A stretch of 64,000 nt of DNA from positions 169,020 to 233,019 of the forward strand of contig BTUO01000007.1 of NCBI GenBank assembly GCA_045862895.1. The letters are read 5' to 3'. The stretch is from Acidobacteriota bacterium (GTDB lineage Bacteria; Acidobacteriota; Thermoanaerobaculia; Multivoradales; JAGPDF01). Below the pieces are notes generated by a model. The model made no database searches, was not told where the DNA came from, and worked only from the letters and a program-made list of their open reading frames with translations. Positions 24,343-56,246 of this stretch are shown here, in pieces (the first letter of the stretch is position 1; the number at the start of each line of letters is the position of its first letter). The position numbers were made by a program, and so were the translations under genes.

Positions 24343-24419
24343 ACGGCGGCTTCGCGGAAGCGCAGCGGCCACCGCAGTAGGATGTGCGGCACGCGCCCGT
24401 TCTCGATGGCGATGCCGCG

Positions 24420-27400: not shown

Positions 27401-28109
27401 CGGCGGCGACCTGACCGGCGCCGCCACCCGCTTCGAGGAGGCGCTGGCGATCGCCCGTGAGCTTTCGCAGCGCGGCCCCGAGGCCGCGGCGCTCGCCGGC
27501 CTCGGCGAAGTCGCGGCCGCCCGCGGCGACCTCGCCGCGGCACGCGAGCGGCTGGGCGCCGCCCTCGAGTTGCGTCGCTCGATCGGCGACGCCGCCGGCG
27601 CCGATCGGGCCCGCCTGTCGCTCGCCCGGATGACTCTCGACGCCGATCCGGAAGCATCGACGCGGGAGGCCGAACAGGTCCTGGCCGGCGAGAGTGCCCG
27701 TAGCTGGATCGACGTCGCCGCGAGCGCGCGGATCGTGCTCGCGCGCTCGGCGCTCGCGCGCGACGACCTGAAAGCGGCGAGCGCGGCCCTCGCCCCTCTC
27801 GCGCCTCCGGCCCCGAGCCCCGGGCTCGCGACGAGCCTCGAGCGCCGATTCCTCGAGGCGAGCACCGCACTCGCCGCGGCGAAGGACCCCGTGCAACGCG
27901 CCGCCGCCGCGGCCGACCTCGACCGGATCTCCGGCGAGGCCGCGACCGCGGGGCTGCTCGCGCTCGAGATCGAGGGCCGCCTCGCCGCGGCGGAAGTGCC
28001 GGGAAACCGCGACGCGCACGAGCTCGGCGAAGTCGCCGGCCGAGCGCGCGCCGCCGGCTACCTCCCCCTCGCCCGCCGCGCCGAAGCCGCCAGCGTCCCT
28101 GAGTGCTGA
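24420..28109 (+). CDS. membrane Ser/Thr protein kinase with N-terminal zinc ribbon, TolB-N-like domain and TPR repeats
   Basis: CSNC..CPNC, ARGGMGEV, VALK, HRDLKGDN, DFG, YMAPE, TM, AVVGLRNL...AEML, multiple LNNLA-type TPRs. Confidence 0.9.
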   Translation: MTTTRSGFLCSNCRVPVPVPEAALRDATLAVVCPNCGQRYQRRPSGATRAPSPSAPTSPPRPSTDSARTPESRPGTTRASERAPTSATAGAGGSDSAPALADGALVAGRWRIVRFLARGGMGEVYEAEDGELRERVALKTIHPTVSSQPASLERFKREVHLARKVTHPNVCRLFEFGIHPAADGPATAFLTMELLEGETLAERARRVGRMPADVVLPIVRQIGAALAAAHAAGVVHRDLKGDNIFLVPASAGGERVVVTDFGIARGGADDRFALTATSIGGGLGTPAYMAPEQVTGEPATAAADQYALGVLVFELLTGELPFRADTPLATAAKRLTEAPPSLADRLPDLDPRWAATVGRALERDPRDRFASVQDLVAALEGSLPVAPATAVGYRAPASAPARESSTRDRRQRWLAALLGVALVAASAWAVIRLRSQRERTAALRPVAARTTVAVVGLRNLAGREDAAWLGTAIAEMLSTELAQGGGLRVVPGDAVARAVEELELGAAERLSAELRARLRARLAADYLVLGGFTALAEGDALRFDLRLEQAATGEAVETLAESGRSSELFDLVSRAGSKLRTRLGAAGGGAGRSLLPASPEAARLYAEGIERLRKLEPEAARERLERAVELDPGNALARSSLAVAWSALGFDGRAAEEARRAYELASSLPEPERWIVEARYFESAGQWQRAAEVWQALWSAAPDNLDYGLRLAACRTQAGEVETALAAIGALRALPEPDGVDPRLDLAEAAAAAAMSDYRRQAEAARRAAARAEAVGGSQLAAQAHAMSSWALRNLGRGDEALAAAEASRALAERAGDRAAAAEAMALAAAVSLDRGDLDAAADGYERALATSRELGDRGGAARALNNLAVVRKARGELGAARRQYEEAEQLAIETGNRRGAAYSAQNVAVILADLGELDAALARLEAARAVFAELADPAGEASALANLGAVRRRRGELADARRLLEESLARRRALGQRAAEAATLSALGQALADGGDLTGAATRFEEALAIARELSQRGPEAAALAGLGEVAAARGDLAAARERLGAALELRRSIGDAAGADRARLSLARMTLDADPEASTREAEQVLAGESARSWIDVAASARIVLARSALARDDLKAASAALAPLAPPAPSPGLATSLERRFLEASTALAAAKDPVQRAAAAADLDRISGEAATAGLLALEIEGRLAAAEVPGNRDAHELGEVAGRARAAGYLPLARRAEAASVPEC

Positions 28110-36345: not shown

Positions 36346-39267
36346 ATGCAGAAGGCCGGCAAGTACGAGATCGTCCGCAAGATCGGCGCCGGGGGCTTCG
36401 GCGTCGTCTACGAAGGTCGCGACCCGTTCATCAAGCGGCGGGTCGCGATCAAGACGTGCACCACCGAGGACGAGGAGATCCGCCAGCGGTTCTACCGCGA
36501 GGCCGAGATCGCCGGCAATCTTCAGCACAAGAACATCGTCACGATCCACGACTTCGGCATCGAGGAGGGGGTCCCCTACCTCGTCCAGGAGTACCTGACC
36601 GGCGAGGACCTCGAGCACGTCATCGCGCGCGGCGCCCCGATCGCGCTCGAGCGCAAGCTCGACATCCTGATCCAGGTCGCGCACGGCATGGACCACGCCC
36701 ACGCCGCGGGCGTGATCCATCGCGACATCAAGCCGGCCAACGTCCGCCTGCTCGACGACGGCCGGGTCAAGATCCTCGACTTCGGAATCGCCAAGCTCGC
36801 CCACGTCGAGAGTCGGCTGACCAAGGAGGGGATGACGGTCGGCACCGCCGCCTACCTGCCCCCCGAGCAGATCCGTGGCGAGAAGATCGACTTCCGCTCC
36901 GACGTCTTCTCCTTCGGCGTGCTCGCCTACGAGCTGCTGGCGATGGTGCGGCCGTTCGACGGCAAGACCCTGTCGACGCTGCTCTTCCAGATCCTCTCGC
37001 AGGTGCCCAGGCCGCTGGCGGAGGCCTTCCCGGGCGCGCCGCCGCGGCTCGCCGCGCTGGTCGACAGCTGCCTCGACAAGGAGGTCGCGAAGCGCTGCGC
37101 CTCCTTCGCCGAGGTCTCCACCGAGCTCGAGGCGACCCTCGCCGAGCTGCCCGCCGACGACGGCGCCGCGGCGGCCGGGGCCACCCTCATCCTGTCGAAG
37201 CCGGAGGTCGACCCGCGCGCGGCCCTCCAGCCGCTGGTCGAGCAGGTGCGCCGGGCGCTCGCGGCCGGCGACCTGACCACCGCCGAGATCGAGATCGGCC
37301 GGGCGCGCGAGAACTGGGGGAGCCAGGGCCCGGCCGAGGAGATCCTGGCGCCGCTCGGCGCCGAGGTCGCCCGCGAGCGCGAGCGCCGCGACGAGCAGCG
37401 CCGCCGCGAGAGCCGGCTGCGCGAGCTGATCGACACCGCCGCCGCCGAGATGGGCGCGGCGCGCCCCGAACGCGCGGCCGAGCTGGCGCGCCAGGCGCTC
37501 GCCGTCGACGCCGGCTCGGCCGAGGCGCGCAGGCTGCTCGACGAGGCCGAGGCCGCCGTCCGCCTCGCGGCGGAGCGCGAGCGCCTCCGCCGCGAAGCCG
37601 AGGCGCTGGCTCGGGCCGAGGCCGATCGCGCGAAGCGCCACGCCGCGTTCGCCGACGAGATCGACGGGGCGATCGCCCAGGCCGCCTTCGCCCGGGCCGA
37701 GAAGGCGATCGCCCGCGCCGAAGCCGAGCTCGGCGCCGGCGCCTTCGAGGACCGGCGCCGCCGGTTGACCGAGCGGCGCGATGCCGCGCTCGAGGCCGAG
37801 CGACGGGAGGCGGAGCGCCTGCGCCTCGAGCGCGAGGAATCGGAGCGCCGCAAGGCCGCGGAGGACGAGCGCAAGCGCATCGAGCGCGCCGAGGCGGAGC
37901 GCCGGAAGGCCGAAGAAGCCGAGCGCCGGCGTGCCGAAGCGCGCGCCGCGGCCGAGCGGCGCGAGGCCGAGGCCCGCGCCGAGGCCGAGAAGCGCCGGGC
38001 CGAGCAACAGGCCGCCGCCGAGCGCAAGGCGGCCGCGGCGCGAGCCGCCGCCGAGCGCCGCGAGGTCGAGGCGAAAGCGGCCGCCGAGAAGCGCGAGGCC
38101 GAGCGGCAGGCCGCCGCCGAAGCCGCGCGCGAGAAGGCGCTGCGCCAGGCCGCCGCGAAGGTCGAGCAGCGTCTCGCGGCAGGCGACCTGGCACGCGCCC
38201 GGCGCGAGCTCGACAAGGCGCTCGCCGGGCAGGGCGACGCCGCGCCCCTCGCCGCCCTGGCGTCGCGCCTGGCCGCGGCCGAGGCCGAGTCTGCCAGCGA
38301 ACGACAGCGACTCGAGCGCGAGCGAGCCGACCGCGAGCGCGCCGCGGCGCTCGAGGCGACCACCGGCAGCGCCGTGCCCTCCGGCTCCTTCGCCAGCCCG
38401 GGCTCCTCGATGTCGAAGTCGGGGCGGCGGGTCGCGGGGTTGGCCGCGGCGGCCGGCATCGCGGGGGTGGCGCTCGTCTCCTGGCTGGTCTTCGGTCGCG
38501 GCGATCGCTCGCCGACCGAGACCGGGGTCGGTCCTGGCGCCGAAGCCGAAGTCGTGGCCGCGTCGCCCGCCACGGCGCCGGCGGGCTCTTCCCCACTCGC
38601 GACGCAACCCGCGGCGCCGGAGTCGCGGCCGGCCACCGACGCCGCGCCGCCGCCGTCTCCGGCGATCGTCTCGCCCGCGCCCGAAGCGGCGCCGGAGGAG
38701 GCCGATCCGGTCCGTCCCGTCGAGGCGTCGCCGACCCGTCCCGAGCCGTACCTGCCGGCGCCGGCGGTCGACCCGTCGCCGGTCGTCGAGCGCCCCGCGC
38801 CCGTCGCGCCGCCGATCCCGGAGCCGACCGCAACGCGTCCCGAAGCACGCCCCGAACCGGCGCCGCCGATCGAGGAGCGCCCGGAGCCGGCGCCGAGCGC
38901 ACCGGCCGAGGTCCGCCCCGAGCCGGTACCCGCCGCCGACCCGACCGTCGGCGTGCGCGCCGCGCTCGAGCGCTACCGCGCCGCCTACCAGGCGCTCGAC
39001 GCGGCCGCGGTCCAGGCGGCGTGGCCGGGCCTCGACGCCAATGCCCGGCGCCAGATCGCCCGCGCCTTCGAGGGTTACCACTCGATCGCGATGAGCCTCG
39101 AGGACTGCCGCTACGAGGTCGAGGGCGAGCGCGCCACGGCGCGCTGCCGCGTGACCCAGACGATCGACGTCAAGGTCGGCCGCGACCTCGAGTCGACCCA
39201 GGACGTGGTCTTCGGGCTGCGCCGCGCGGGCGCCGGGTGGGTGATCCAGGAGCGCACCGCGCGCTGA
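36346..39267 (+). CDS. membrane Ser/Thr protein kinase with long TolA-like helical region, Pro-rich linker and C-terminal NTF2/SnoaL-like domain
   Basis: IGAGGFGVVY, VAIK, HRDIKPAN, DFG, YLPPEQ. E/R/A/K coiled coil, TM, Pro-rich stalk. TG-C-TACGCT -10 at 36322-36330. Confidence 0.9.
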   Translation: MQKAGKYEIVRKIGAGGFGVVYEGRDPFIKRRVAIKTCTTEDEEIRQRFYREAEIAGNLQHKNIVTIHDFGIEEGVPYLVQEYLTGEDLEHVIARGAPIALERKLDILIQVAHGMDHAHAAGVIHRDIKPANVRLLDDGRVKILDFGIAKLAHVESRLTKEGMTVGTAAYLPPEQIRGEKIDFRSDVFSFGVLAYELLAMVRPFDGKTLSTLLFQILSQVPRPLAEAFPGAPPRLAALVDSCLDKEVAKRCASFAEVSTELEATLAELPADDGAAAAGATLILSKPEVDPRAALQPLVEQVRRALAAGDLTTAEIEIGRARENWGSQGPAEEILAPLGAEVARERERRDEQRRRESRLRELIDTAAAEMGAARPERAAELARQALAVDAGSAEARRLLDEAEAAVRLAAERERLRREAEALARAEADRAKRHAAFADEIDGAIAQAAFARAEKAIARAEAELGAGAFEDRRRRLTERRDAALEAERREAERLRLEREESERRKAAEDERKRIERAEAERRKAEEAERRRAEARAAAERREAEARAEAEKRRAEQQAAAERKAAAARAAAERREVEAKAAAEKREAERQAAAEAAREKALRQAAAKVEQRLAAGDLARARRELDKALAGQGDAAPLAALASRLAAAEAESASERQRLERERADRERAAALEATTGSAVPSGSFASPGSSMSKSGRRVAGLAAAAGIAGVALVSWLVFGRGDRSPTETGVGPGAEAEVVAASPATAPAGSSPLATQPAAPESRPATDAAPPPSPAIVSPAPEAAPEEADPVRPVEASPTRPEPYLPAPAVDPSPVVERPAPVAPPIPEPTATRPEARPEPAPPIEERPEPAPSAPAEVRPEPVPAADPTVGVRAALERYRAAYQALDAAAVQAAWPGLDANARRQIARAFEGYHSIAMSLEDCRYEVEGERATARCRVTQTIDVKVGRDLESTQDVVFGLRRAGAGWVIQERTAR

Positions 39268-42552: not shown

Positions 42553-42694
42553 GTCGCACCCCCGCCAGCAAGCCTAGCTTCCGCCTCGGCTTCGACTCCT
42601 GCCCCCGCGGGTAGTCGTGTTCCGCCGGCCCTTGTCAGCTCGGGCGCGGAGGTCCAGAATGACCGGACCGGTCGCCCCTGCCGAGGAGACTCTC

Positions 42695-44665
42695 GTGCCG
42701 AAACTCAGCTTCGCCTGCGCTCTCGCCCTCCTGCTCGGATCCGCCGCGCTCGAAGCGCAGACCTGCGTCCCCCACCTGCTCGGCGCCGACCGCCGCGGAC
42801 CGGCCCAGTCGATCTCGCGGACCGGCTCGACGCTCTACGTCGGCACCGGCGCGGCGCTGCTCGTCGTCGACGTCACCGACCGCGCGAACCCGGTCGAGCG
42901 CGGCTACGTCAATCTGGACGGTATCGTCCGCGACGTCGCCGCCGCCGGCTCGATCGCGGTGGTGCTCGCGGATTCCGGCCTCTTCTTCGTCGACGCTACC
43001 GATCCGGAGGAACCGATGCTCGCGGGCTGGTGGCCGATTCCTGCGCTCTGGTACGTGCGCCACATCGACGCTCGCGGCACGCTCGTCTACCTTCCGGCCG
43101 CCGACGGCCTCCATATCGTCGATTTCACGGATCCGGCGGGCGCCGCTCAGGTCGGCTTCCTCGCTACGCTCGACTCCCGCGACGTCGTGACCCGGAGCCC
43201 GACCCGCGCCTACATCGTCGGCAACGGTTCGCTCCACGCCATCGACATCTCGATTCCCTCGGCACCCACGGTCGTCTCGTCGACCGCCCTCCCCAACGGC
43301 GCCGATGCGGCACTGGCCATCGGTCCCAATGGCGGCCGCCTGGCGGCCTGGCGCAACTACTCTTCTCACCACCCGTGGAGCGACGTCGCGCTCTTCGATC
43401 TCTCCGACGCAGATCAACCGGTCTTTCGATGGGGAACTTCGGGTGAACCGATCTCAGCGCTGACGATCGCAGGCGACCGCGCCTATATCGGGAGCTCGAT
43501 CTACCGCATCTCGAATCCGGCGCAGCCGACTTGGCTCGGTGAGCTTGGAGTCGACGCTCCGAGCAGTCATGCGCCCACCGGCAACCCGGATCTGCTCTAT
43601 GTCGCGGACTCGACCCGGGGAGTCGCGACGATGAACGTCTCCGACGGCGGCTCCGTCGTCGAGGTCGACCTCGTCGCACTGCCGACCGAGACGATCGACG
43701 GCTACGTCGCTGGAGGATCCGCGGTGATCCTGGAACGGAGTGGACTGCGCGTCGCGAACCTGAACGCTCCGGACTTGCTCGAGCCGGTCGGAGACCTCCG
43801 ATTGCCCCAGACCTGGCTCTCGAACATCACGCGGATCTCGACTCACGCCGTCGTCGTCGGGTACTTCGACGACGGACCCAACGTGATGCGTCTCGTCGAC
43901 TTGGCGAATCCGGCCGAGCCGACACTCGGCGTGACGCTGCCCACTCTCGCCGAACGACCTCCGGTCGTCGATCAGAACCTGCTCCTGGCCATGTCCAGAT
44001 GCTCGGGTAGCCGTTCCGTCGCCATCTACGATGTCTCGGAACCTGCGCTGCCGATTCTCGTTACGGAGCTCGAGACCGAATCGGAGTGTCTGTACCCCGA
44101 CCTCGCTGCCGACGGCGACCGACTCTACGTCTGGCGTGAAGTCGATCCCTATCCGATCGGACACTACGTTTTCACAGTGTTCGACATCTCGGTGCCCGAT
44201 GCCCCGGTCGAGCTCGCGAGATCGAGCACCGAGAACCATTGGGGCTCCAGCGTCGCCCGCGGACACAGGCTGGTGCTCACCGAGGACGAGCGGCTCGACG
44301 TGCTCGATCTCGCCGACCCTGCGACGCCCGTCCTCCGCGGTTCGGTGCCTCTGCGAGAATCACGCGGGGTCTCCACCGAGCAGGTCCGCCTGTACGGCAG
44401 CCGCGCCGGGCTTCCGCGACGCGGTCGCGACGCGAACGGCAATCGGGACGATCGTCCGAGCCTCGTCGATATCTCCGATCCTGCGGCACCCTTCGAGTGG
44501 GCGGCGCTCGACACGCCCGGCACCGGCGACAGCATCTTCTTCGGACCCGGAGTCGTCGTCGTGGCCGACGGCGCGGCCGGAATCTCGATCTTCGAGTCCT
44601 GCGTTCCCTTCGCCGACGGCTTCGAGTCGGGCGATACGTCGGAGTGGAGCCTGCTCGAACCGTAG
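42695..44665 (+). CDS. secreted LVIVD-repeat beta-propeller protein with FADGFESG tail (paralog B)
   Basis: GTG start with GAGGAG SD; TTGTCA-N17-CAGAAT upstream. Signal peptide, about 13 LVIVD-like repeats. Ends CVPFADGFESGDTSEWSLLEP. Confidence 0.88.
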   Translation: MPKLSFACALALLLGSAALEAQTCVPHLLGADRRGPAQSISRTGSTLYVGTGAALLVVDVTDRANPVERGYVNLDGIVRDVAAAGSIAVVLADSGLFFVDATDPEEPMLAGWWPIPALWYVRHIDARGTLVYLPAADGLHIVDFTDPAGAAQVGFLATLDSRDVVTRSPTRAYIVGNGSLHAIDISIPSAPTVVSSTALPNGADAALAIGPNGGRLAAWRNYSSHHPWSDVALFDLSDADQPVFRWGTSGEPISALTIAGDRAYIGSSIYRISNPAQPTWLGELGVDAPSSHAPTGNPDLLYVADSTRGVATMNVSDGGSVVEVDLVALPTETIDGYVAGGSAVILERSGLRVANLNAPDLLEPVGDLRLPQTWLSNITRISTHAVVVGYFDDGPNVMRLVDLANPAEPTLGVTLPTLAERPPVVDQNLLLAMSRCSGSRSVAIYDVSEPALPILVTELETESECLYPDLAADGDRLYVWREVDPYPIGHYVFTVFDISVPDAPVELARSSTENHWGSSVARGHRLVLTEDERLDVLDLADPATPVLRGSVPLRESRGVSTEQVRLYGSRAGLPRRGRDANGNRDDRPSLVDISDPAAPFEWAALDTPGTGDSIFFGPGVVVVADGAAGISIFESCVPFADGFESGDTSEWSLLEP

Positions 44666-44675
44666 CCGTTCTTCG

Positions 44676-46307
44676 TCAGAAGTCGAACGCCTCCCACGCG
44701 GCGGTGTCGCCGCTCTCGAAGCCGTCGCCGAAGAGGGCGTCGCGCTCGAAGGCGCCGAGGTCGAGGCCGGTGCCCGCGACGCGCGGGGCGTGGTCGGCGT
44801 CGTAGGCGCCGACCGAGTCGAAGGTCGCGTCGCCGGCGTCGAGCGCCTGCGAGCTCGCCTGCAGATGGAAGTCGCCGGCGCCGGAGGCTTCGAACAGCGG
44901 ATCCGGATCGCCCAGCTCGCCGATCCAGTTGTGCTGGGCGACGCGGTCGAATTCTGGGTCGCCGAGGAGGACCTGGACGTCGTTCGCGGGGCCCGGCCCG
45001 TTGCTCCAGAGGATCGAGTTCTCGAGACGGAGCTCGGCGTCCGTGGACTCCGAGAGCTCGACGCCGACGCCCGCGTGCCCGACCACGGTCAGGTTGCCGG
45101 CGACCAGCGTGCTGCCGGCACCGGATGCCGAGAGGCGGATCCCCTTCGGCGGACCGCCGACCGAGAGCAGGTCGGAGGCGATCAGGGTCGAGCCGTTCGA
45201 GGCCGACAGCAGGCCGACCAACTGCGCGTCGTCGACCCGCGAGAAGCCGTAGGAACGGACGCGGCGGAGGACCAGCGGCGCGGCACCGGTCGATCCGACC
45301 TCGAGCTCGCGGGGCGTGTGGCTCTGCGCCGGGCCGAACAGAGCATCGCCGCCGAGCCGCAGATCCTCGAGCACGACGGATCCGGCCGCGCCGACGCTCG
45401 AGGAGAGGCTGAATCCCGCCGCGCTCACGACGCCGGTCGCTTCGACACCGTTGCCGTCGAGTAGCAGCCGCCGCCCTTCGAATCGCACGGAGTCCGAAAG
45501 CGAGATCCGCATGGCTCCGCCGATCGCGATCGATCCGGGCAACGCCGAGTCCGCCTGGTTGTCGAGAAACGAGACGTTCGACAGGCCGACCACGGTGTTC
45601 TCCTGGGCGATGAGGTCGAGCCCGCCGCCCGCGCACGAGATCCCGACCCCGGGATCGAGCGCGGTCGCGAGATTGTCGAGGAACAGCGTGTCCTCGATCG
45701 AGATCGTCTGACCGGTGCCGCTGTTGAAGATCGAGACCGCGCCGCCGTTGACCGCGCTCGAACCGGTCAGGACCACGTCGCGCAGCGCGAGGCTGGCGCT
45801 CTCGACCCGGATCGCGCCGCCGTGAGCGGGGCTCTCGGCGTGTGCCGAGCCGCCGACGAGGCCGACGTTGCGGACCGCGAGCCGGGCGCCCGCCGTGACC
45901 CGGACGAAACGGTTGGCGCCGAGCAGGTGGATCTCGGCGAAGCCGGCGGCGGGCGCGCCGCGCACGGTGAGATCGATCGCCGCTCCCGTGAGCGTCTCCT
46001 GGCCCTGGTCGAACGCGAAGGGTCCCTCGACCGCGAGCACGATCTCGTCGACCGCGCCGCCGGCGGCGCATTCGTTGACCGCCAGGTCGGTCGCCGCCGC
46101 GCGGATCGCCTCGCGCAGCGAACAGACGCCGTCGACCGCGACCGCGTCCGCGATCGACGTGATCGACCAGCCGGTGGCGTGCGCCGGCGACGCCCCGCCG
46201 AGCAAGGCGACGAGCGCGAGGCCGGCGGACGCCGGCGCGAGAACGCCGGCCGCGGCGAGCGGGTGGATCCGCGAGGACGGCGCGGTACGGACGGACGTGG
46301 ACGACAT
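44676..46307 (-). CDS. secreted CSLREA-domain / beta-helix protein with choice-of-anchor-Q-like segment and FGDGFESG tail
   Basis: DGVCSLREAIRAA, GGAI repeats, GDFHLQASSQALDAG...DLGAFE, tail LFGDGFESGDTAAWEAFDF. Start at 46307 (SD GGAGG) or 46325. Confidence 0.88.
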   Translation of the reverse strand: MSSTSVRTAPSSRIHPLAAAGVLAPASAGLALVALLGGASPAHATGWSITSIADAVAVDGVCSLREAIRAAATDLAVNECAAGGAVDEIVLAVEGPFAFDQGQETLTGAAIDLTVRGAPAAGFAEIHLLGANRFVRVTAGARLAVRNVGLVGGSAHAESPAHGGAIRVESASLALRDVVLTGSSAVNGGAVSIFNSGTGQTISIEDTLFLDNLATALDPGVGISCAGGGLDLIAQENTVVGLSNVSFLDNQADSALPGSIAIGGAMRISLSDSVRFEGRRLLLDGNGVEATGVVSAAGFSLSSSVGAAGSVVLEDLRLGGDALFGPAQSHTPRELEVGSTGAAPLVLRRVRSYGFSRVDDAQLVGLLSASNGSTLIASDLLSVGGPPKGIRLSASGAGSTLVAGNLTVVGHAGVGVELSESTDAELRLENSILWSNGPGPANDVQVLLGDPEFDRVAQHNWIGELGDPDPLFEASGAGDFHLQASSQALDAGDATFDSVGAYDADHAPRVAGTGLDLGAFERDALFGDGFESGDTAAWEAFDF

Positions 46308-46336
46308 CGGACCTCCCGGGAGCATGGTCTCCCTCG

Positions 46337-46366
46337 CTACGCGGGAGGTACGTCGGCGGGGGGACA
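46337..46366 (-). promoter_or_regulatory. candidate ECF-sigma promoter for the CSLREA gene
   Basis: TGTCCC-N17-CGCGTAG on the minus strand. Same architecture as 48108-48137. Confidence 0.5.
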
Positions 46367-46467
46367 GCGCGAGGGGCGGCGGCGGAGGGAGCCCGACCTG
46401 TCCGCGCCGTCGTCCCCGGCGACGACGCGGTCGCGCCCGCCACCGGGGAACGACGTCGGTGACCCGA

Positions 46468-48102
46468 TCAGAAGGCGCCGGCCGACCAGCGCGACGCGAA
46501 GCCGTTCTCGAAACCGTCGCCGAACAGCGAGCCGCGCAGCACGATCTCGGCGCCGGTTCTGGGAGCCTCGCCGGGCACCTGCTCGTCGGGCGCTCCGATC
46601 ACCAGATCGGCGTGACCGTCGCCGTCGAAGTCGCCCGCGGCGAGCGCCCAGCCGAACATCGAGGACTGGTTGAGCGCTCCGGGCAGCCCGCCGACGCCCT
46701 CGAGCACCGTCAGCCGGCGCGAGGTCGTGAGACGCGACGGCGACCCCATCATCGCCGAGACCTGTCCGGCCTCGGCCACCGGCGTGTCCTCGCGTGGCGT
46801 GCCGACCACGAGATCGTCGTAGCCGTCGGCGTCGAAGTCGGCGGCGACCAGGCTGAAGCCGAACAGGTCGTCGGACTCGTCGTGACCGGGGCCGACGAAG
46901 TTGCCCTGCTCCCAGTACTGGGTGCGCGACAGGTCGAAGCGGAAGGGCGAGCCGTAGATCGTGAAGGCGGCGCCGGCGTTGACCAGGACGTTGTTCAGGC
47001 CGAGGTCCTCGAACGGCGCGCCGATCGCCAGATCGTCGTGGCCGTCGCCGTCGAAGTCGCCGGCGGCGAGCTCGAAGCCGAAGGTGTCACCGCTCTCGCT
47101 CAGCCCCCCGATGCTGGTCTCCCACCAGAGGACGTTCTCCGCAAACAGCAGCCCCCACTGGCTGCCGAAGACGACCTGGATCGCCCCTTCGCCGTCCTCG
47201 CCGGGCACGCCGATCGCGAGGTCGTCGTAGCCGTTGGCGTCGAAATCGCCGGTCGCCAGCCCCTCGCCGAAGCGGTCCCCGGGATCGCGCGTGCCGAGCA
47301 GCCCCAGCAGCCCCTGGTACATGTCGTATCCGAGGTAGGGCATCAGGCCACCGACGCCGCCGTGCAGGACGACGACGCTGCCGGCGTCCTCGAAGCCCGA
47401 GCCGGAGACGTAATCGTAGGGGACGCCGACCGCGAGATCGTCGAAGCCGTCGCCGTCGAAGTCGCCGACGGCCAGCGCGCTGCCGAAGCGGTCGAAAGCC
47501 TCCGGAGTGCCGGGAATGTCGAGAGCGGCCTGGCGAAGGAAGTGCTCGCCGACAGTCTGGATCCCCTCCGGCAGCCCGTAGTGGATCGAGACGCCGCCGG
47601 CGTGCTGGGCGCCGGTGTTGTTGCGGGGAACGCCGACGGCGAGGTCGTCGCGACCGTCGCCGTTGAAGTCGCCCGCCGCGAGGCTCAGCCCGAAGACGTC
47701 CTCCGGCTGCGCGGGGTCGGGGCTGCCGACGAACTGCTGGCTGAGCACCGTCGACGCCAACCCGCCAGCCAGCCCCGAGCCGGGTACGCCGAAGCGGACG
47801 ACGACGATGCCGCAGTCGATGCAGCCGCTGCCGACGATGCCGTTGTGGCCGGGGATGCCGGTGGCGAGATCGGCCGCGCCGTCGCCGTTGAAGTCGCCAG
47901 TGGCGAGCGCGAAGCCGAACTGGTCGCCGTGCTCGGGGACGAAGAACAGCAGGTCCTCGTCGCCGAACCACTCGGAGCCGACCGCGGAGAGCCCCACCGC
48001 GAGCGGCTGCCCGGCGGCCGCAGCGGGGGAGGAGAGGGAAGCCAGAGCGGCGATGGCGCCGCCCAGGAGCAGAGGTGCGGAGAGTCGGATGTCGGTTCTC
48101 AT
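46468..48102 (-). CDS. secreted FG-GAP (integrin-alpha-like) 7-repeat propeller protein with FGDGFENG tail
   Basis: Seven FGxxLAxGDFDGDGxDDLAVGxP repeats and a signal peptide. Tail LFGDGFENGFASRWSAGAF. Confidence 0.92.
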   Translation of the reverse strand: MRTDIRLSAPLLLGGAIAALASLSSPAAAAGQPLAVGLSAVGSEWFGDEDLLFFVPEHGDQFGFALATGDFNGDGAADLATGIPGHNGIVGSGCIDCGIVVVRFGVPGSGLAGGLASTVLSQQFVGSPDPAQPEDVFGLSLAAGDFNGDGRDDLAVGVPRNNTGAQHAGGVSIHYGLPEGIQTVGEHFLRQAALDIPGTPEAFDRFGSALAVGDFDGDGFDDLAVGVPYDYVSGSGFEDAGSVVVLHGGVGGLMPYLGYDMYQGLLGLLGTRDPGDRFGEGLATGDFDANGYDDLAIGVPGEDGEGAIQVVFGSQWGLLFAENVLWWETSIGGLSESGDTFGFELAAGDFDGDGHDDLAIGAPFEDLGLNNVLVNAGAAFTIYGSPFRFDLSRTQYWEQGNFVGPGHDESDDLFGFSLVAADFDADGYDDLVVGTPREDTPVAEAGQVSAMMGSPSRLTTSRRLTVLEGVGGLPGALNQSSMFGWALAAGDFDGDGHADLVIGAPDEQVPGEAPRTGAEIVLRGSLFGDGFENGFASRWSAGAF

Positions 48103-48107
48103 GACCA

Positions 48108-48137
48108 CTACGCGCGACGCGCCGACGCCGCGGCTCA
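48108..48137 (-). promoter_or_regulatory. candidate ECF-sigma promoter for the FG-GAP gene (leaderless)
   Basis: TGAGCC-N17-CGCGTAG on the minus strand, ending 5 nt before ATG 48102. Confidence 0.5.
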
Positions 48138-48191
48138 CGGCGTGACCGGCGCCGCGGCGGGCGCGGTCGGCCGGGGGTACACTCGCCGGAC

Positions 48192-48764
48192 ATGTCCCCC
48201 CGGAAAGGGCCGGCCGAGGACGTCACCACCCTGCTGCGCGCCTGGCGCGCCGGCGACGCCGGCGCGCGCGACCTGCTGCTCGAGCGCGTCTACGCCGACC
48301 TCAAGCGGATCGCGGCGGCGCAGATGCGGGGCGAGCGGGTCGGGCACACGCTCGAGCCGACCGCGCTGGTGCACGAGAGCTTCCTGCGCCTGATCGGTCA
48401 GGCCGCGGTCGACTGGCGCGACCGCGCGCACTTCTTCGGACTCGCCGCGGCGATGATGCGCCGCGTCCTGGTCGACCACGCCCGCCGCCGCCTCGCGCGC
48501 AAACGTCGCTCCGACGAACCGCCGCCGATGCTCACCGTCGCCGCTCCGGGGCGGGCGGCGGTCGAGCTGCTCGACCTCGACCGCGCCCTCGAGAAGCTCG
48601 CGAGCGAATCGCCGCGGCCGGCCAAGGTCGTCGAGATGCGCTACTTCGGCGGGCTCGAGATCGAGGAGGTGGCCGCCTGCCTCGAGGTCTCACCGGCCAC
48701 GGTCAAGCGCGACTGGGACTACGCCCGCGCGTGGATCGGCGCCGAGCTGCGTCCCGCGCCGTGA
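48192..48764 (+). CDS. ECF sigma factor, TIGR02999/ECF43 type (kinase-associated)
   Basis: VTTLLRAWRAGD, HTLEPTALVHESFLRL, MRRVLVDHAR, VVEMRYFGGL, TVKRDW. No anti-sigma; overlaps a kinase gene. Confidence 0.93.
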   Translation: MSPRKGPAEDVTTLLRAWRAGDAGARDLLLERVYADLKRIAAAQMRGERVGHTLEPTALVHESFLRLIGQAAVDWRDRAHFFGLAAAMMRRVLVDHARRRLARKRRSDEPPPMLTVAAPGRAAVELLDLDRALEKLASESPRPAKVVEMRYFGGLEIEEVAACLEVSPATVKRDWDYARAWIGAELRPAP

Positions 48765-51463
48765 GTCGCGAGACGCTGCGCGACCTGTTCGAGCGCGCCC
48801 GCGGCCTCGCGGCCGGCGAGCGCGAGCGGCTCCTCGCCGAGGTCGAGCAGGGCGGACATCCGCATGCCGCCGAGCTGCGCCGCCTGCTCGCCGCCGCGGA
48901 GGCCCCCGCTTCCCCGCTCGACGCGGACCCCTTCGGCGTGCTCGAGGACGAGGTCCCGCCGACGCGCATCGGCCCGTTCCGGATCCTCTCCGAGCTCGGA
49001 CGCGGTGGCATGGGCCGCGTCTACCTCGCCGAGCAGACCGGGGACGGCTTCCGGCGCCAGGTCGCGCTCAAGGTCATCGCCAGAGGCGCCCGCGCCGACA
49101 TCGAGCGCCGCGCGCGCGACGAGCAGCGGATCCTCGCCGCGCTCGAGCACCCGGGCATCGCCCGCTTCTACGACGCCGGCCGGACCGCCGACGGCGACTG
49201 GTACCTGGCGCTCGAGTACGTCGAGGGCAGCGACCTGCTCGACCACGTCCGCGCGCAGGCGCTGCCGCTCGCCGACCGGCTCCGCCTGCTGCGCGACGTC
49301 GCCGAGGCGGTCGCCTACGCCCACGCGCGCGGCGTGGTCCATCGCGACCTGAAGCCGGGCAACATCCTGGTTTCGGCCGACGGCCGGCCGCGCCTGCTCG
49401 ACTTCGGCATCGCCAAGCTGGTCGAGCCCGGCCCCGAGCCGGGTCCGAGCGTGACGCGCACCGGGTTCCGCGCGATGACGCCGGCCTACGCGAGCCCCGA
49501 GCAGTTCCGCGGCGAGCCGGTGACGATCGCCTCCGACGTCTTCTCGCTCGGCGTCGTGCTCTACGAGCTGGTGGCGGGTGTGCGACCCTTCGCCCCCCGC
49601 GCCCTCTCGGCGAGCGAGGTCGAGCGCGCGGTCCTCGCCGGCGACCCCGAGCTGCCTTCGACCGTCGCGCGCCGCACCACCACGATCGAGTCGGTCGATC
49701 GCCCGGCGACCGCCGGCCACCGCCGCCGCTGGACGGCCGGGATGCGCCGCGATCTCGACGCCATCTGTCTCAAGGCGCTCGCCAAACGCCCTGCGGATCG
49801 CTACCCGTCGGCGGCCGAGCTCGCCGCCGACCTCTCGGCGCTGCTCGACGGGCGACCGGTGGCGGCGCGTGGCAGCGGCGGGCTCTACCGCCTCTCCCGG
49901 CTCGTCCGGCGCCACCGTGCCGAGCTGACCGCCGCGACGGCGATCGCGGTCGCGATCGGCGCGCTCCTGTTCGCCCTGGCGCCGCGCTCCGGCGGGCGAG
50001 CCGCGAGCGGCACACCGGTCGCGCGCGCGCCGTTCTCCACGCGCGCGGCCGACGCGCTGTCGCTCGACGAGCTGCGGCGGCGATTCGCCGCCGCGCCGGG
50101 CGACGCCGTCGCCGGTGCCCTGCTGGCGACCGCGCTCGCCAGTCGCGGCGAAGGTTCGGAGGCCGCGATCGTGGTCGGGCGGCTGCGCCAGCTCCCCGCG
50201 GCGGCGGACGACCCGATCGTCGACTACGCGGAAGCCGTCGTCGCGACCCACCTCGACGAGCCCCAGCGGGCGCTCGCGCTGTTCGATCGCGCGCTCGGGC
50301 GCGCGGCCGAGGCCGGGCGCCCGGAGCTCATCGCCCGCCTCCGCCTGGGTCGCGCGCGATCGCACTCCGACCTCGGCCAGACCGCCGAGGCGATCCGCGA
50401 CCTCGAGGAGTCGATCGCGGAGGCGCGACGCACGGGCGAGGACTCGACGCTCGCGGTCGCGCTCAACGATCTGGCGGTCGAGCGCTTGATGGCGGGCGAC
50501 TGGTCCGAGGGCGAGCGCCTCCTGGTCGACGCGCTCGAGGCCGCCCGCGCGGTCGACGACCGGCCGCGCATCGGCCTGATCCTGCAGAACCTCGGCGGCC
50601 TGGCTTTCCAGCGCGGCCGGCCCGACCTCGCCGAGGAACGGCTGCGCGAAGCGATCGTGGCCCACGACGCGCTCGGCCGCGAGCGCCACGCCGCGACCAC
50701 CCGCGCCGACCTGTCGCAGGCGGTGCGCGACCAGGGGCGCGCCGGTGAGGCCGAGGGACTGCTCGGGGACGCGGTCTCGGTGTTGCGGCGGATCGGGCAC
50801 GAGACTTCGCTCGCCTACGCGCTCGCGGCGCTCGGCGAGGTCGCCGTCGCCCGCCTCGATCCGGACCAGGCCGAGCGTCTCGCCGCGGAGATCGAAGCGG
50901 GAGCGCGGACCAGCGGCAATCCATCGAGCCTCGGCCTCGCCGAGCGGTTGCGGGCGCTGGCCGCCGCGTCGAAGGGGGACCTCGAATCCGCGCGCGGCCG
51001 ATTCGAGCGCTCGCGCCGCCTGTTCGTCGACAGCGGCAACCTCGACCTCGCCGCCGAAACCGCCGTCGCCCACGCCACCGAAGAGCTCGACGCGGGCCAT
51101 CTCGATCGCGCCGCGGCACTGCTCGAACCCGGCGCTCCGGACTTCGTGGCGGCCCCCGCCGACGGCAACGCCGCGTTCGTCGCCGCGACCCTGCGCGCCC
51201 GGATCGCCGCCGCCTCGGGTCGCGTGGCGGAGGGGAACCGGCAGCTCGAGCCGCTCGGCGACGGCGCGAGCGCGCCGAGCCTCGCGCGACGGATCCACTA
51301 CCGGCGCGCGCGCGCCGCCCTGGCGACGGCGGCGGGGCGCACCGCCGACGCGCGGGCCGATCTCGATGCCGCGCGCTCCGACGCGCTCGCCCTCGACCAC
51401 CGCCGCCTCGCCGCGCGTCTCGAGGCCGACCTCGCGACGGGACGGGTGCGAGGACGGCCCTGA
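48761..51463 (+). CDS. membrane Ser/Thr protein kinase with extracytoplasmic TPR domain, cognate to the ECF sigma
   Basis: GTG overlaps the sigma stop (GTGA). LGRGGMGRVY, VALK, HRDLKPGN, DFG, TPAYASPEQ, TM, TPRs. Confidence 0.92.
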   Translation: MSRETLRDLFERARGLAAGERERLLAEVEQGGHPHAAELRRLLAAAEAPASPLDADPFGVLEDEVPPTRIGPFRILSELGRGGMGRVYLAEQTGDGFRRQVALKVIARGARADIERRARDEQRILAALEHPGIARFYDAGRTADGDWYLALEYVEGSDLLDHVRAQALPLADRLRLLRDVAEAVAYAHARGVVHRDLKPGNILVSADGRPRLLDFGIAKLVEPGPEPGPSVTRTGFRAMTPAYASPEQFRGEPVTIASDVFSLGVVLYELVAGVRPFAPRALSASEVERAVLAGDPELPSTVARRTTTIESVDRPATAGHRRRWTAGMRRDLDAICLKALAKRPADRYPSAAELAADLSALLDGRPVAARGSGGLYRLSRLVRRHRAELTAATAIAVAIGALLFALAPRSGGRAASGTPVARAPFSTRAADALSLDELRRRFAAAPGDAVAGALLATALASRGEGSEAAIVVGRLRQLPAAADDPIVDYAEAVVATHLDEPQRALALFDRALGRAAEAGRPELIARLRLGRARSHSDLGQTAEAIRDLEESIAEARRTGEDSTLAVALNDLAVERLMAGDWSEGERLLVDALEAARAVDDRPRIGLILQNLGGLAFQRGRPDLAEERLREAIVAHDALGRERHAATTRADLSQAVRDQGRAGEAEGLLGDAVSVLRRIGHETSLAYALAALGEVAVARLDPDQAERLAAEIEAGARTSGNPSSLGLAERLRALAAASKGDLESARGRFERSRRLFVDSGNLDLAAETAVAHATEELDAGHLDRAAALLEPGAPDFVAAPADGNAAFVAATLRARIAAASGRVAEGNRQLEPLGDGASAPSLARRIHYRRARAALATAAGRTADARADLDAARSDALALDHRRLAARLEADLATGRVRGRP

Positions 51464-51520: not shown

Positions 51521-53110
51521 ATGAACTCCCTCGCGGCCGAGGCCGCCCGCCGGCGCACGTTCGCCATCATCAGCCACCCGGACGCGGGCAAGACGACGCT
51601 GACCGAAAAGCTCCTGCTGTTCGGCGGCGCCATCCAGCTCGCCGGCGCGGTCAAGGCCCGCGGCGACGCCCGCCGCGCGCGTTCCGACTGGATGAAGGTC
51701 GAGCAGGAGCGCGGCATCTCGGTCACCGCCTCGGTGATGACCTTCGAGTGGGGCGACTGCGTCTTCAACCTGCTCGACACTCCGGGGCACCAGGACTTCT
51801 CCGAGGACACCTACCGGACGCTCACCGCGGTCGATTCCGCGGTGATGGTGATCGACGCCGCCAAGGGCATCGAGACCCAGACCCGCAAGCTGTTCGAGGT
51901 CTGCCGCCTGCGCGACGTGCCGATCGTCACCTTCGTCAACAAGCTCGACCGCGAGGGACGCGATCCGTTCGAGCTGATGGACGAGATCGAGCAGGACCTC
52001 CAGCTCCACGTCACGCCGGCCAACTGGCCGATCGGGATGGGTGCGTCGTTCCGCGGCTGCTACGACCTGCTCGCCGACCGCCTGCTGCTGTTCGATCGCG
52101 GCCAGGGCGCGCGCCGGCCCGATCCGATCGCCTTCCACGGCCTCTCGGACCCCGCGCTCGAGAGCCACCTGCCGCACGGCGCGGTCGAGAAGCTGCGCGA
52201 GGACGCCCACCTCGCCTCCTCGCTGTGCCCGGCCTTCGACCTCGAGGTCTACCGCGAGGGGCACCTGACGCCGGTCTTCTTCGGCTCGGCGCTCCACAAC
52301 TTCGGCGTGCGCGAGCTGATCGAGGCGATCGCCGCGCACGCGCCGTCGCCGCGCCCGCAGAAGACCGCCGAGCGGACGATCGAGCCGACCGAGGAGAAGG
52401 TCGCCGCGTTCGTCTTCAAGATCCAGGCGAACATGGATCCCAAGCACCGCGACCGGATCGCCTTCACCCGCATCTGCTCGGGGCGCTTCGAGCGCGGCCA
52501 ACGCCTGTTCCACCCGCGCTCGGGCAAGTGGATCAACGTCCACACGCCGGTGATGTTCCTCGCCCGCGAGCGCGAGATCGCCGAGGAGGCTTACCCCGGC
52601 GACATCGTCGGCATCCCGAACCACGGCCAGCTCCGGATCGGCGACGCCCTGACCGAGGGCGAGACGCTGCACATCCTCGGCATTCCGTCGTTCGCGCCCG
52701 AGCTGCTGCAGAAGGTGCGCGCCACCGATCCGCTCAAGGCCAAGCACCTCGGCAAGGCGCTCACCCACCTCGCCGAGGAGGGGGCCGCGCAGGTGTTCAA
52801 GACCCGGATCGGCGGCGAGTGGATCGTCGGTGTGGCCGGCGCGCTCCAGTTCGACGTGCTCGCCGACCGCATCCGCACCGAGTACGATCTCTCGGTCGAG
52901 TTCCAGTCGACGACGCTCCACACCGCGCGCTGGCTCGAGGCCGAGGACGCGCGCGAGCTCAAGCGCTTCCTCGAGGCCCACCAGGGCGCGCTCGCCGACG
53001 ACTGGTCCGGATCGCCGGTCTTCCTCGCGGCCAATCCCTACCGGCTGAAGGTCGCCGAGGAGGACTGGCCCAAGGTACGCTTCCTCAAGACCCGCGAGCA
53101 GGCGGCCTGA
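51521..53110 (+). CDS. prfC: peptide chain release factor 3
   Basis: RRTFAIISHPDAGKTTLTEKLLL, DWMKVEQERGISV, DTPGHQDFSEDTYR, NKLD, FKIQANMDPKHRDR. Confidence 0.98.
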   Translation: MNSLAAEAARRRTFAIISHPDAGKTTLTEKLLLFGGAIQLAGAVKARGDARRARSDWMKVEQERGISVTASVMTFEWGDCVFNLLDTPGHQDFSEDTYRTLTAVDSAVMVIDAAKGIETQTRKLFEVCRLRDVPIVTFVNKLDREGRDPFELMDEIEQDLQLHVTPANWPIGMGASFRGCYDLLADRLLLFDRGQGARRPDPIAFHGLSDPALESHLPHGAVEKLREDAHLASSLCPAFDLEVYREGHLTPVFFGSALHNFGVRELIEAIAAHAPSPRPQKTAERTIEPTEEKVAAFVFKIQANMDPKHRDRIAFTRICSGRFERGQRLFHPRSGKWINVHTPVMFLAREREIAEEAYPGDIVGIPNHGQLRIGDALTEGETLHILGIPSFAPELLQKVRATDPLKAKHLGKALTHLAEEGAAQVFKTRIGGEWIVGVAGALQFDVLADRIRTEYDLSVEFQSTTLHTARWLEAEDARELKRFLEAHQGALADDWSGSPVFLAANPYRLKVAEEDWPKVRFLKTREQAA

Positions 53111-54948: not shown

Positions 54949-56246
54949 TCGGCGAAGGCGGGGTTGACGGCGCGCGTGCGCGCGATCGCTTCCGCGGCGG
55001 CCGCCTCGTCGCCGGTCTCGGCGAGCGCGCGGGCGAGCTCGCGCCGGGCGATCAGCTTGAGCACGCCGCCGCCCCCCGCCTGCCAGAACTGGCCCACGGC
55101 GTCGACCGCGCGCCAGCGCTCGATCGCCGCCGGCCAGTCGCCGTCGATCGAGAGGCGCTGCCCCTCGAAGAAGGCGATCAGCGTGCCGAGCTCCTCGGCG
55201 GCCTTCGGGAAGTCGGCGCCGACCGACGCCGCCTTCTCGCGCAGAGTGCTCTCGATTTCGAGCGCGAGCTCGCGTCGCCCCGACACCAGCGCCAGGCGGT
55301 GAACCAGGACCTCGGGCTGTCGGTAGACCTCCTCGCACGCCGGATCCGCCGAGCGCCACGGCGCCTCGGCATCTCCGGTGAGGAAGCCGCGGGCGACCGG
55401 CACCATGCAGGCGAGCTTGCGGGCGTGGTCGGCGGCGCAGTCGCGCTGGGCGCGCGCGGCGAGCACGTCGAGGTCGCCGGGTCGGCGGTCGAGCACGGCC
55501 AGGCGCAGCAGGTTGTCGTACGACGCGCAGAAGTCCGGCCGGATCGCCAGCGCCTCCTCGAGCTCGGCGCGGGCCTCGTCGTAGCGCCCGACGAGGACCA
55601 GCAGCTCGCCGAGCGAGTCGTGCGGGTTGGCCTGGTCCGGCGCCACGAACTTGTAGGTTCGGAAGCGCGATTCCGCCTCGGCGAAGCGCCCCTGCGCCAT
55701 CGCGATGTAGCCGAGGTTGTTGTGCGCCAGGACCCAGTTCGGGTCGACCTCGAGCAGGCGCCGGTAGCGCCGCTCGGCGACCTCCCAGTCCTGCCGCACC
55801 CAGGCGTCGGTGGCCGCGGTGATCAGCGCCCACGGGTCGTCCGGGTGGCGGTCGAGGTAGGCCTCGATCCGCGCGGTGCGCCCGATCAGATCGTCGTCGA
55901 GCCGCGCGAAGAGAATGTCGAGCAGGAAGCGCTCGCGCTCGGTCAGCCGCTCGCGATCGGCGACCCGCAGCTCCCCGATCAGACGCTCGCGGACCTGCTT
56001 GTCGGCGTCGGAGTCGACCAGGGCGAGCTTGGCGGCGACGAACTCGGGATCGAGCTCGAGCGCCCGCTCGTACGCGGCGCGGGCGTCGACGAAGTAGAAG
56101 CGCATGTGCGCCTGGCGCCCGCGCTCGTACTCGGCCAGAGCGGCCGGGGAGTCGGTCGTCCAGGTTCGCCGGGTCGCCGCGCGCAGCCAGAACGCGGCGC
56201 CGGCGGCGAGCGCCAGGACCACGGCGATCAGTACGATTCGGCGCAT
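54855..56246 (-). CDS. membrane-anchored or exported TPR protein
   Basis: N-terminal hydrophobic anchor MRRIVLIAVVLALAAG, YERALELDPEF, LEVDPNWVLAHNNLGY, PDQANPHDSLGE. SD AGGAGGAGG. Confidence 0.82.
   Translation of the reverse strand: MRRIVLIAVVLALAAGAAFWLRAATRRTWTTDSPAALAEYERGRQAHMRFYFVDARAAYERALELDPEFVAAKLALVDSDADKQVRERLIGELRVADRERLTERERFLLDILFARLDDDLIGRTARIEAYLDRHPDDPWALITAATDAWVRQDWEVAERRYRRLLEVDPNWVLAHNNLGYIAMAQGRFAEAESRFRTYKFVAPDQANPHDSLGELLVLVGRYDEARAELEEALAIRPDFCASYDNLLRLAVLDRRPGDLDVLAARAQRDCAADHARKLACMVPVARGFLTGDAEAPWRSADPACEEVYRQPEVLVHRLALVSGRRELALEIESTLREKAASVGADFPKAAEELGTLIAFFEGQRLSIDGDWPAAIERWRAVDAVGQFWQAGGGGVLKLIARRELARALAETGDEAAAAEAIARTRAVNPAFADQPWEGWPLASSPPGDSVVAAPSARGASGSI

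Follow-up and report, generated by a model that had tools for sequence, protein, structure and literature searches.

The 64,000-nucleotide (nt) stretch of DNA analysed here, referred to as the window, comes from the genome of an uncultured member of the Thermoanaerobaculia (Acidobacteriota) from sludge or bioreactor samples, three runs of which (X1-X3) contain 100% of the sampled words of this genome. On its minus strand lie, one behind the other, a gene for a secreted FG-GAP repeat protein and a gene for a CSLREA/choice-of-anchor-Q protein (the CSLREA gene), and divergent from the former is an operon for an extracytoplasmic function (ECF) sigma factor and a Hanks-type Ser/Thr kinase. Both minus-strand genes are preceded by a bipartite motif, which we call site 1 (FG-GAP) and site 2 (CSLREA). 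We propose, with a probability of roughly 0.7, that the sites are two neighbouring output promoters of ECF43 sigma factors, site 1 being read by the adjacent sigma factor and site 2 by a paralogue (type B) whose gene has been deleted at this locus. From the comparison with their relatives, both sites are predicted to be ECF43-class promoters, that is, conserved promoters of kinase-controlled alternative sigma factors, and as such they would belong to a kind of ECF-dependent promoter that is already known.

The earlier note on this DNA had reported TGAGCC-N17-CGCGTAG at 48137-48108 and TGTCCC-N17-CGCGTAG at 46366-46337, both on the minus strand and with identical −10 heptamer and spacing. Both were re-found with CGCGTAG and N17, the first at a gap of 5 nt to ATG 48102. 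The absence of a TAnnnT box for the FG-GAP and CSLREA genes was likewise borne out, since none is present in the sense orientation; the clear TAnnnT in the spacer 48103-48191 (TACACT, 48178-48183) is on the opposite strand and serves the sigma gene. A scan of 44500-48900 for sigma70 promoters and terminators gave no sigma70-like promoter and only two terminator-like matches, both intragenic. The caution that there were just two sites, in GC-rich DNA and picked post hoc, was well placed, as the statistics within the window are weak. There are 14 copies of CGCGTAG where 13.6 are expected, and the bipartite pattern with two mismatches allowed is found 51 times against 51.6 expected. The post hoc pattern itself was found twice against 0.07 expected, and TGDBMN-N17-CGCGYAV, a pattern generalised from the wider family, twice against 1.59 expected anywhere in the window; both of the latter matches are in the sense orientation and no more than 30 nt from the gene start downstream, a placement for which about 0.03 would be expected by our estimate. 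Since neither the heptamer nor the relaxed motif is enriched, the window by itself cannot decide. This lack of enrichment would suit a chance resemblance of two GC-rich stretches, as would our estimate that two random GC-rich hexamers agree at ≥4/6 positions about 7% of the time, but chance is refuted as an explanation, and we give it almost no weight, because many independent genomes have kept both sites, with free spacers, in the same place before homologous genes.

Conservation of the predicted promoter upstream of FG-GAP genes

A genome scan using the window sigma protein gave 80 loci. The closest all belong to metagenome-assembled genomes of Thermoanaerobaculia, and one of them (L001, 80% identity) is syntenic with the window, prfC included. 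FG-GAP genes flank the sigma–kinase pair in most Thermoanaerobaculia loci, where they are divergent from the pair, between sigma and kinase, or convergent behind the kinase. Upstream of the FG-GAP gene, a TGAGCC-type motif was found in about 30 ECF43/kinase cassettes of about 20 Thermoanaerobaculia species, each such gene being preceded by G-ATGAGCC-N17-CGCGTA[G/C/A], and the exact TGAGCC hexamer stands at N17 in about 25 FG-GAP-upstream sites. Among 28 training sites CGCGTA is invariant (28/28), TG.GC is essentially invariant and all have N17, with unrelated spacer sequences. Tandem FG-GAP arrays (L017, L022, L027) carry one copy of the motif per gene. On a position weight matrix (PWM) of the TGAGCC family that was built without the window sites, site 1 reaches 22.6 bits, which falls within the training range of 15-29 bits and is higher than anywhere else in the window; the next-best position, at 17.4 bits, is intragenic. 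No comparable motif was found at the ECF43 loci of other Acidobacteriota classes, Gemmatimonadota or Xanthomonadales.

An unbiased metagenome scan for ATGAGCC-N17-CGCGTAG-N4-CATGA returned 12 stretches, nine of them GC-rich. Eight of these nine adjoin ECF and/or Ser/Thr kinase genes, and the ninth (L092) stands before an FG-GAP gene, in 4.4 kb of sequence that contain no ECF gene. The motif search at TIGR02999-linked genes that had been suggested earlier gave a tight linkage to ECF43 sigma and kinase cassettes, with conserved boxes at a fixed position. The −10 has the CGT core that had been pointed out as typical of ECF promoters, CGCGTA being invariant apart from a CGCGCA variant in L036-38 and L045. 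In addition, the two conserved boxes are separated by a rigid spacer of free sequence (N17 in the 28 sites and in the site 2 orthologues, N16 in L100), as is the case in ECF promoters. In our view, the adjacent ECF43 sigma factor very probably reads site 1.

The downstream end of site 1 reads CGCGTA-GTGGTC-ATG with no Shine-Dalgarno (SD) sequence, in agreement with the leaderless geometry first noted for it, and the FG-GAP transcript is predicted to be leaderless and to start at ATG 48102. The gap between motif and ATG is usually 5 nt, and a −10 located 6-8 nt before the start without an SD is found in about 24 of 28 paralogous sites; in L013, L034 and L039 the motif is followed, 30-100 nt downstream, by a leader that bears an SD. 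The protein start MR(T/P/N) is conserved among the homologous genes of related loci. It could be argued that the conserved blocks are coding and that the FG-GAP protein begins further upstream, with Met-Ser-(x6)-Arg-Val-Val-x-Met at its N-terminus, since an upstream ATG or GTG is in frame with ATG 48102 at a distance of 36 nt in the window and most compact loci, and the codon-usage gene map chose GTG 48138. However, L016 has an in-frame TGA between the blocks, the frame is broken by a 6-nt gap before the ATG in L017 (first copy) and L025, and in the three loci with a leader the motif precedes both SD and ATG. The boxes are invariant including third-codon positions and a rare GTA codon, whereas the "codons" between them are unconstrained, and site 2 is non-coding. 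We regard a coding origin as having a negligible chance of being right.

In this Thermoanaerobaculia genome many mRNAs seem to lack a leader. TAnnnT is situated 6-8 nt before the ATG, with no SD, in 6 of 40 predicted window genes against about 0.5 expected by chance (Table 1), and the CGCGTA-to-ATG distance of site 1 is the same as the TAnnnT distance in these six sigma70-type genes. One of the six is the sigma gene itself, and TAnnnT is found 6-8 nt upstream of the ECF start in nearly all related Thermoanaerobaculia loci. Transcription of the sigma–kinase operon therefore appears, from these boxes, to be constitutive, leaderless and not autoregulated, which fits post-translational control by the kinase.

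Covariation of the −35 hexamer with the sigma4.2 helix

The strongest computational argument for the linked ECF43 sigma factor reading the motif comes from covariation. For each module, the first residues of the sigma4.2 recognition helix in the linked ECF protein were tabulated against the −35 of the linked promoter. The helix SPATVK goes with TGAGCC in 18 modules, the window included; SP[AV]TVR or SSATVR with TGAGC[A/G] (4 modules); ST[PI]T or GPAT with TGAT[CA]C (4 modules); SPTT with TGG[CT]C[CT] (3 modules); SPR[TS] with [AG]TGGCA (2 modules); and S[DE]R[TS] with TGTCCC (5), TGGCCC (2) or ATGGCC (1) in 8 modules. A further locus found after the tabulation, L101, combines a SART helix with TGTCCC. 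In a permutation test on the 24 unique combinations the mutual information was 1.78 bits and none of 20000 shuffles reached as high a value; the association of K/R in the helix with −35 position 6 gave p ~0.01, and neither figure is corrected for relatedness, so they are not to be taken as true probabilities. The covariation assigns site 1 to the adjacent sigma factor (helix SPATVKRDWDY) and site 2 to a type-B paralogue, and on this basis we would argue that it is the linked ECF43 protein that recognizes each motif.

It is conceivable, albeit rather improbable, that another factor reads the motifs, such as a different alternative sigma factor of all FG-GAP genes or a transcription factor, and that the linkage to ECF43 is physical only. 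Many cassettes per genome with nearly the same motif would fit one common regulator, and the −35 is without the AAC typical of ECF promoters. On the other hand, the −35 varies together with the helix in the linked sigma factor across six classes, and all but one of the GC-rich metagenome matches (8/9) adjoin ECF or kinase genes. The two boxes, the free 17-nt spacer and the distance from −10 to ATG also match the leaderless sigma70-type promoters of the host, which is the geometry of a promoter and not of an operator.

At two SPTT-helix sigma factors, ECF43-class promoters reading TGACCC or TGGTCC followed by N17 and CGCGTA precede SAM-methyltransferase genes (L013 2742-2774 and L031 5878-5910, both on the minus strand), a second recurrent output class besides FG-GAP.

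The predicted promoter upstream of the CSLREA gene and the missing type-B sigma factor

The earlier claim of one motif that is the target of the adjacent sigma factor is supported for site 1, by the pairing of SPAT sigma factors with TGAGCC, and is not supported for site 2, as TGTCCC pairs with S[DEA]R[TS] paralogues. On the TGAGCC-family PWM site 2 reaches 6.5 bits, the −35 contributing −1.1, and ten intragenic positions of the window score higher. A chance origin of site 2, considered on account of this score, was overturned by the CSLREA orthologues. In orthologues of 73-88% identity CTGTCCC and CGCGTAG are invariant and the spacer is variable (alignment A1: window, L093, L094-96, L097, L098), and the TGTCCC/CGCGTAG boxes are likewise kept in L100 and L101, giving six CSLREA-operon lineages beyond the window; TGTCCC is also the −35 of L036 and L038. 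In the orthologues the 29 nt between −10 and ATG form a moderately conserved leader that includes the SD GGGAGG. Site 2 is accordingly not leaderless. The CSLREA start is most likely ATG 46307 and not 46325, given the SD GGGAGG at 46317-46312 and in agreement with public gene calls, of which P0001 (543 amino acids (aa)) is 100% identical to the window CSLREA protein.

The TGTCCC promoter directly heads the CSLREA gene in L098, L100 and L101. In L093 and L097 it is a different FG-GAP gene that has the promoter and the N-terminal leader at its head, and this gene shares a 4-nt overlap with the CSLREA gene. A unit made up of the TGTCCC promoter, the 29-nt leader and the N-terminus M[SP]xT[SP]VR[ST]AP thus stands before a second FG-GAP gene in L093 (830-4026) and L097 (867-4060), and before CSLREA in the window (44676-46366), L094, L098 (735-2330) and L100. 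As judged by these alignments, promoter, leader and N-terminus form a fixed module behind which a gene was either gained or lost.

Beside the TGTCCC promoter, and divergent from it, L093, L097, L098, L100 and L101 have a type-B ECF43 gene of 193-200 aa with an S[DEA]R[TS] helix, whose own −10 (TAGACT/TAAACT) is a few nt from the TGTCCC −35. By blastn, positions 1-369 of L100 are the 3′ end of an FG-GAP gene, 89% identical to window 46836-46468 and with the same ...GDGFENGFASRWSAGAF tail, and L100 from 1021 matches the window from 46371, in colinear order. Between these flanks L100 has 651 nt including the type-B sigma gene, compared with 96 nt in the window; L094 shows the same gap as the window, only 9 nt long. 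Since homology picks up again about 5-8 nt upstream of TGTCCC, the site 2 promoter has been kept whole. Site 2 is, on this alignment, best described as a sister promoter whose cognate sigma gene was deleted at the locus, leaving a 96-nt scar. Relative to L094 the 3′ part of the FG-GAP gene (46900-46451) is 97.6% identical and the promoter/CSLREA part (46374-45901) only 82%, and this mosaic junction suggests a recent recombination at the scar. The scar also folds into a GC-rich hairpin (46409-46454), a possible terminator. In the closest genome, L001, the place downstream of FG-GAP is taken not by a CSLREA gene but by a SIMPL gene, which has a leaderless promoter with TAGAAT.

The window and L094 have kept both boxes intact, although their spacers differ at about half of the positions, so the site 2 promoter is probably still in use, most simply by a type-B ECF43 sigma factor encoded elsewhere in the genome. 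Consistent with this, single genomes hold both sigma types (L009 and L036, or L022 and L034). The type-B genes of L093, L097, L098 and L100 have no kinase directly downstream, their 3′ neighbour being convergent, and the exception is L101, in which a kinase gene follows the type-B ECF43 gene. The kinase-less type-B sigma factors may require a kinase from another locus, for instance that of cassette A (see below).

The main competitor of this two-sigma model is that the adjacent ECF43 sigma factor alone reads both sites and tolerates TGAGCC as well as TGTCCC. The two sites share −10 and spacing, the FG-GAP and CSLREA genes are adjacent and co-oriented, and the window has no other ECF gene; furthermore, the intact boxes in the window and L094 after the loss of type B would be explicable if the neighbouring sigma factor serves them. 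Nevertheless, SPATVK helices pair with TGAGCC in 18/18 modules and never with TGTCCC, TGTCCC is always paired with S.R.-helix sigma factors, and the window helix SPATVKRDWDY shows no shift towards the type-B helix. Together with the low score of site 2 on the TGAGCC-family PWM, these pairings make a single sigma factor for both sites an unlikely but not negligible possibility, clearly less probable than two.

Several points weigh against the two-sigma model as well. The covariation classes coincide with phylogenetic clades, and the permutation test ignores kinship. The S[DE]R[TS] sigma factors pair with TGGCCC in addition to TGTCCC, so the code is not one-to-one. Several genomes hold at least two cassettes with the same SPAT/TGAGCC pairing (L003 and L027; L011 and L024), which implies that promoter specificity alone cannot insulate all cassettes, and a single sigma factor shared by like cassettes could conceivably operate in such genomes. 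The AAC-containing −35 that is typical of many ECF groups is absent from TGAGCC and TGTCCC. No ECF gene but that of the adjacent sigma factor, and no type-B sigma gene, is present in the window, and this makes the trans-acting factor for site 2 hypothetical. Finally, the RNA-labelled public runs (X12, X13, X25, X26, X27, X37, X38, X42) provide contigs only, with a flat or sparse depth that crosses intergenic regions and is without 5′-end information; one X27 contig stops at 48116, yet X27 also covers the neighbouring spacer.

Proposed mechanism

In the two-sigma model, cassette A is complete. Its sigma–kinase operon (48192-51463) would be expressed as a constitutive leaderless mRNA from TACACT, and the membrane kinase with its periplasmic TPR domain would phosphorylate the sigma factor at the Thr of the LEPTAL motif in sigma2.2. 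Phosphorylation would lead to binding of core RNA polymerase, and the holoenzyme would initiate at TGAGCC-N17-CGCGTA, with the A of ATG 48102 as +1, giving a leaderless mRNA for the secreted seven-repeat FG-GAP protein. Site 2 (TGTCCC-N17-CGCGTA, with leader and SD, before CSLREA) would be the output promoter of a second cassette, B, the sigma factor of which would be the ECF43 paralogue with the S[DEA]R[TS] helix that is divergent beside the promoter in related genomes. The cassette B sigma gene would have been lost here with the promoter remaining intact and probably being served in trans by a type-B ECF43 protein; service by the adjacent sigma factor, or read-through past the hairpin, is less likely.

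A more speculative extension, which we put forward tentatively and would not expect to hold in full, is that the amplified cassettes of kinase, ECF43 and leaderless FG-GAP or CSLREA output act as parallel channels. These might be insulated by a helix/−35 code (sigma4.2 helix residues 2-3 and 6 with −35 positions 3-4 and 6), and might be rewired in trans after loss of a sigma gene, site 2 being an example. The secreted FG-GAP beta-propeller might then be a ligand or co-receptor of the periplasmic TPR domain of the kinase and so close a feedback loop.

Relation to known systems

The co-occurrence of a Hanks kinase is a hallmark of ECF43 (PMC13147305), and ECF43 sigma factors are activated by Thr phosphorylation in sigma2.2, as in EcfP and EcfK (PMC13147305, PMC8999054). 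The published ECF43 sigma2.2 consensus is QTTA in place of DAED, and EcfK has QATE (PMC13147305). The window sigma factor scores 211.2 bits against TIGR02999 (cut-off 126.15) and 188.7 bits against PF07638 (cut-off 21.1). Its sigma2.2 region is HTLEPTALVHE and its sigma4.2 recognition helix SPATVKRDWDYARAW (SPATVKRDWDY). By motif inspection the DAED position is occupied by GHTLEPTALVHE, in which the Thr is conserved and one acidic residue is kept, and which accordingly has the Thr-containing, mostly uncharged character of ECF43. The second mark of the group is also present, as a Hanks kinase is co-encoded and there is no anti-sigma factor, the other neighbour of the sigma gene being the FG-GAP gene. 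The kinase contains a single transmembrane segment (~aa 387-410), and its TPR domain of about 490 aa is extracytoplasmic.

The system resembles EcfP-PknT of Vibrio parahaemolyticus and EcfK-PknS of Xanthomonas citri in the sigma family (TIGR02999/PF07638), in the membrane Ser/Thr kinase with an extracytoplasmic domain that is encoded directly downstream with no anti-sigma factor, in the Thr at the sigma2.2 DAED position (LEPTAL here, with one acidic residue kept as in EcfK) and in a sigma gene that here appears not to be autoregulated. It is unlike them in its outputs, which are secreted FG-GAP, CSLREA and methyltransferase genes and not polymyxin-resistance or type VI secretion system genes, in the amplification of the cassette to many paralogues per genome with distinct −35 variants, and in the leaderless mRNA that is predicted for the main target. 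We found no link between FG-GAP genes and ECF43 in the literature, and no ECF43 target-promoter motif in reviews.

Canonical ECF promoters are those of Escherichia coli sigmaE (GGAACTT-N16-TCAAA) and Bacillus subtilis sigmaW (TGAAAC-N16-CGTA). The sites described here share with them the bipartite −35/−10 structure, the rigid spacer of ~16-17 nt and the CGT(A) core; in both cases the two boxes are information-rich and specificity comes largely from −35 and sigma4.2. They differ in the −35, which is TGAGCC or TGTCCC without AAC, in the −10 block CGCGTA, and in the spacer, which becomes 19 nt if CGTA is taken as the −10 core. Leaderless promoters with TAnnnT 6-8 nt before the start codon are common in Actinobacteria and Deinococcus. 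Site 1 is similar to these in that its −10 ends 6 nt before the ATG and no SD is present, but its −10 is the ECF-type CGCGTA and not TAnnnT, and site 2 and the promoters of L013, L034 and L039 are followed by a leader with SD.

Features of the locus and other observations in the window

The gene map was derived from codon usage, and families were assigned with Pfam and NCBIfam (Table 1). The FG-GAP protein matches PF01839 in 7 stretches (Pfam, E=9e-69). Rfam gave no RNA family match anywhere in the window.

Table 1. Promoter boxes, genes and other features of the window (SD, Shine-Dalgarno sequence)
Feature	Position	Strand	Remarks
Predicted site 1 −35, TGAGCC	48132..48137	−	Family consensus G-ATGAGCC
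Predicted site 1 −10, CGCGTA(G)	48108..48114	−	CGCGTA ends 6 nt before the A of ATG 48102
Predicted site 2 −35, TGTCCC (type-B variant)	46361..46366	−	Invariant in CSLREA-operon relatives
Predicted site 2 −10, CGCGTA(G)	46337..46343	−	Invariant in CSLREA-operon relatives
Housekeeping-type −10, TACACT	48178..48183	+	8 nt before the ECF sigma ATG
FG-GAP repeat protein gene	46468..48102	−	544 aa, signal peptide, 7 FG-GAP repeats, C-terminal GDGFENGFASRW tail
ECF43-type sigma factor gene (TIGR02999/PF07638)	48192..48764	+	Family-model scores above cut-offs
Hanks-type Ser/Thr kinase gene	48761..51463	+	Start overlaps sigma stop by 4 nt
CSLREA/choice-of-anchor-Q protein gene	44676..46307	−	543 aa from ATG 46307, signal peptide, GDGFESGDTAAW tail
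CSLREA leader, 29 nt	46308..46336	−	SD GGGAGG 46317-46312; leader and SD kept in orthologues
96-nt scar, FG-GAP stop to site 2 promoter	46372..46467	−	Alignment to L100 and L094
prfC	51521-53110	+	Gene map, Pfam/NCBIfam
Predicted leaderless starts with TAnnnT	3592, 11670, 18248, 19983, 31883, 48192	+, +, −, −, −, +	
Tail-bearing genes	28263-30218, 42659-44665, 44676-46307, 46468-48102	+, +, −, −	Shared C-terminal tail

Four secreted proteins of the window (two LVIVD, one CSLREA and one FG-GAP) have a common tail, F[AG]DGFE[SN]G..(S/A).W, no more than about 10 residues from the C-terminus, and this tail was matched by no Pfam or NCBIfam model. The idea that the promoter motif is a property of the tail-bearing genes did not survive, because both LVIVD tail genes have sigma70-type promoters instead, and a motif common to these genes was ruled out by TTGTCA-N17-CA[GC]AAT at LVIVD genes and TGcgTACAAT at gene 28263. 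The former promoter is found at the window LVIVD gene (42553-42700, plus strand) and at both L099 copies (3709-3830 and 5792-5960, minus strand). The apparent ATG 42659 of this window gene overlaps the −10 (CAGAATG), so the real start is probably GTG 42695, behind the SD GAGGAG. In L083 an ECF43-class promoter precedes a secreted protein other than FG-GAP; at 3676-4635 of this locus the tail motif (FTDGFEVGRVCRWS) is internal and not terminal.

The window is dense in Ser/Thr signalling genes. Two more Hanks-type kinases and a PDZ-GAF-SpoIIE (PP2C) phosphatase are encoded at 24384-28109 (+), 36346-39267 (+) and 56228-58768 (−). Neither of the two further kinase genes adjoins an ECF gene; one, which encodes TPRs, is followed directly by an LVIVD tail gene. 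Two regions of about 1.3-1.4 kb each, 15367-16781 and 54949-56227, have no confident open reading frame in the codon-usage gene map.

Implications

Acidobacteria have large unexplained expansions of ECF sigma factors and Ser/Thr kinases, and ECF43 target promoters are known for very few organisms. This locus and about 40 related cassettes offer a promoter consensus, an output family (secreted FG-GAP and CSLREA proteins) and a natural table of helix/−35 pairs, with which sigma–promoter specificity and cross-talk between paralogues become directly testable. The case is an example of how a motif that seems to be shared within one window may conceal two regulators, of which one has been deleted. 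For the specialist, a moderate interest attaches to the ECF-dependent target that is predicted to be leaderless and to the specificity table across amplified cassettes. If the predictions from sequence are correct, leaderless transcription in the Thermoanaerobaculia would extend to ECF-dependent genes.

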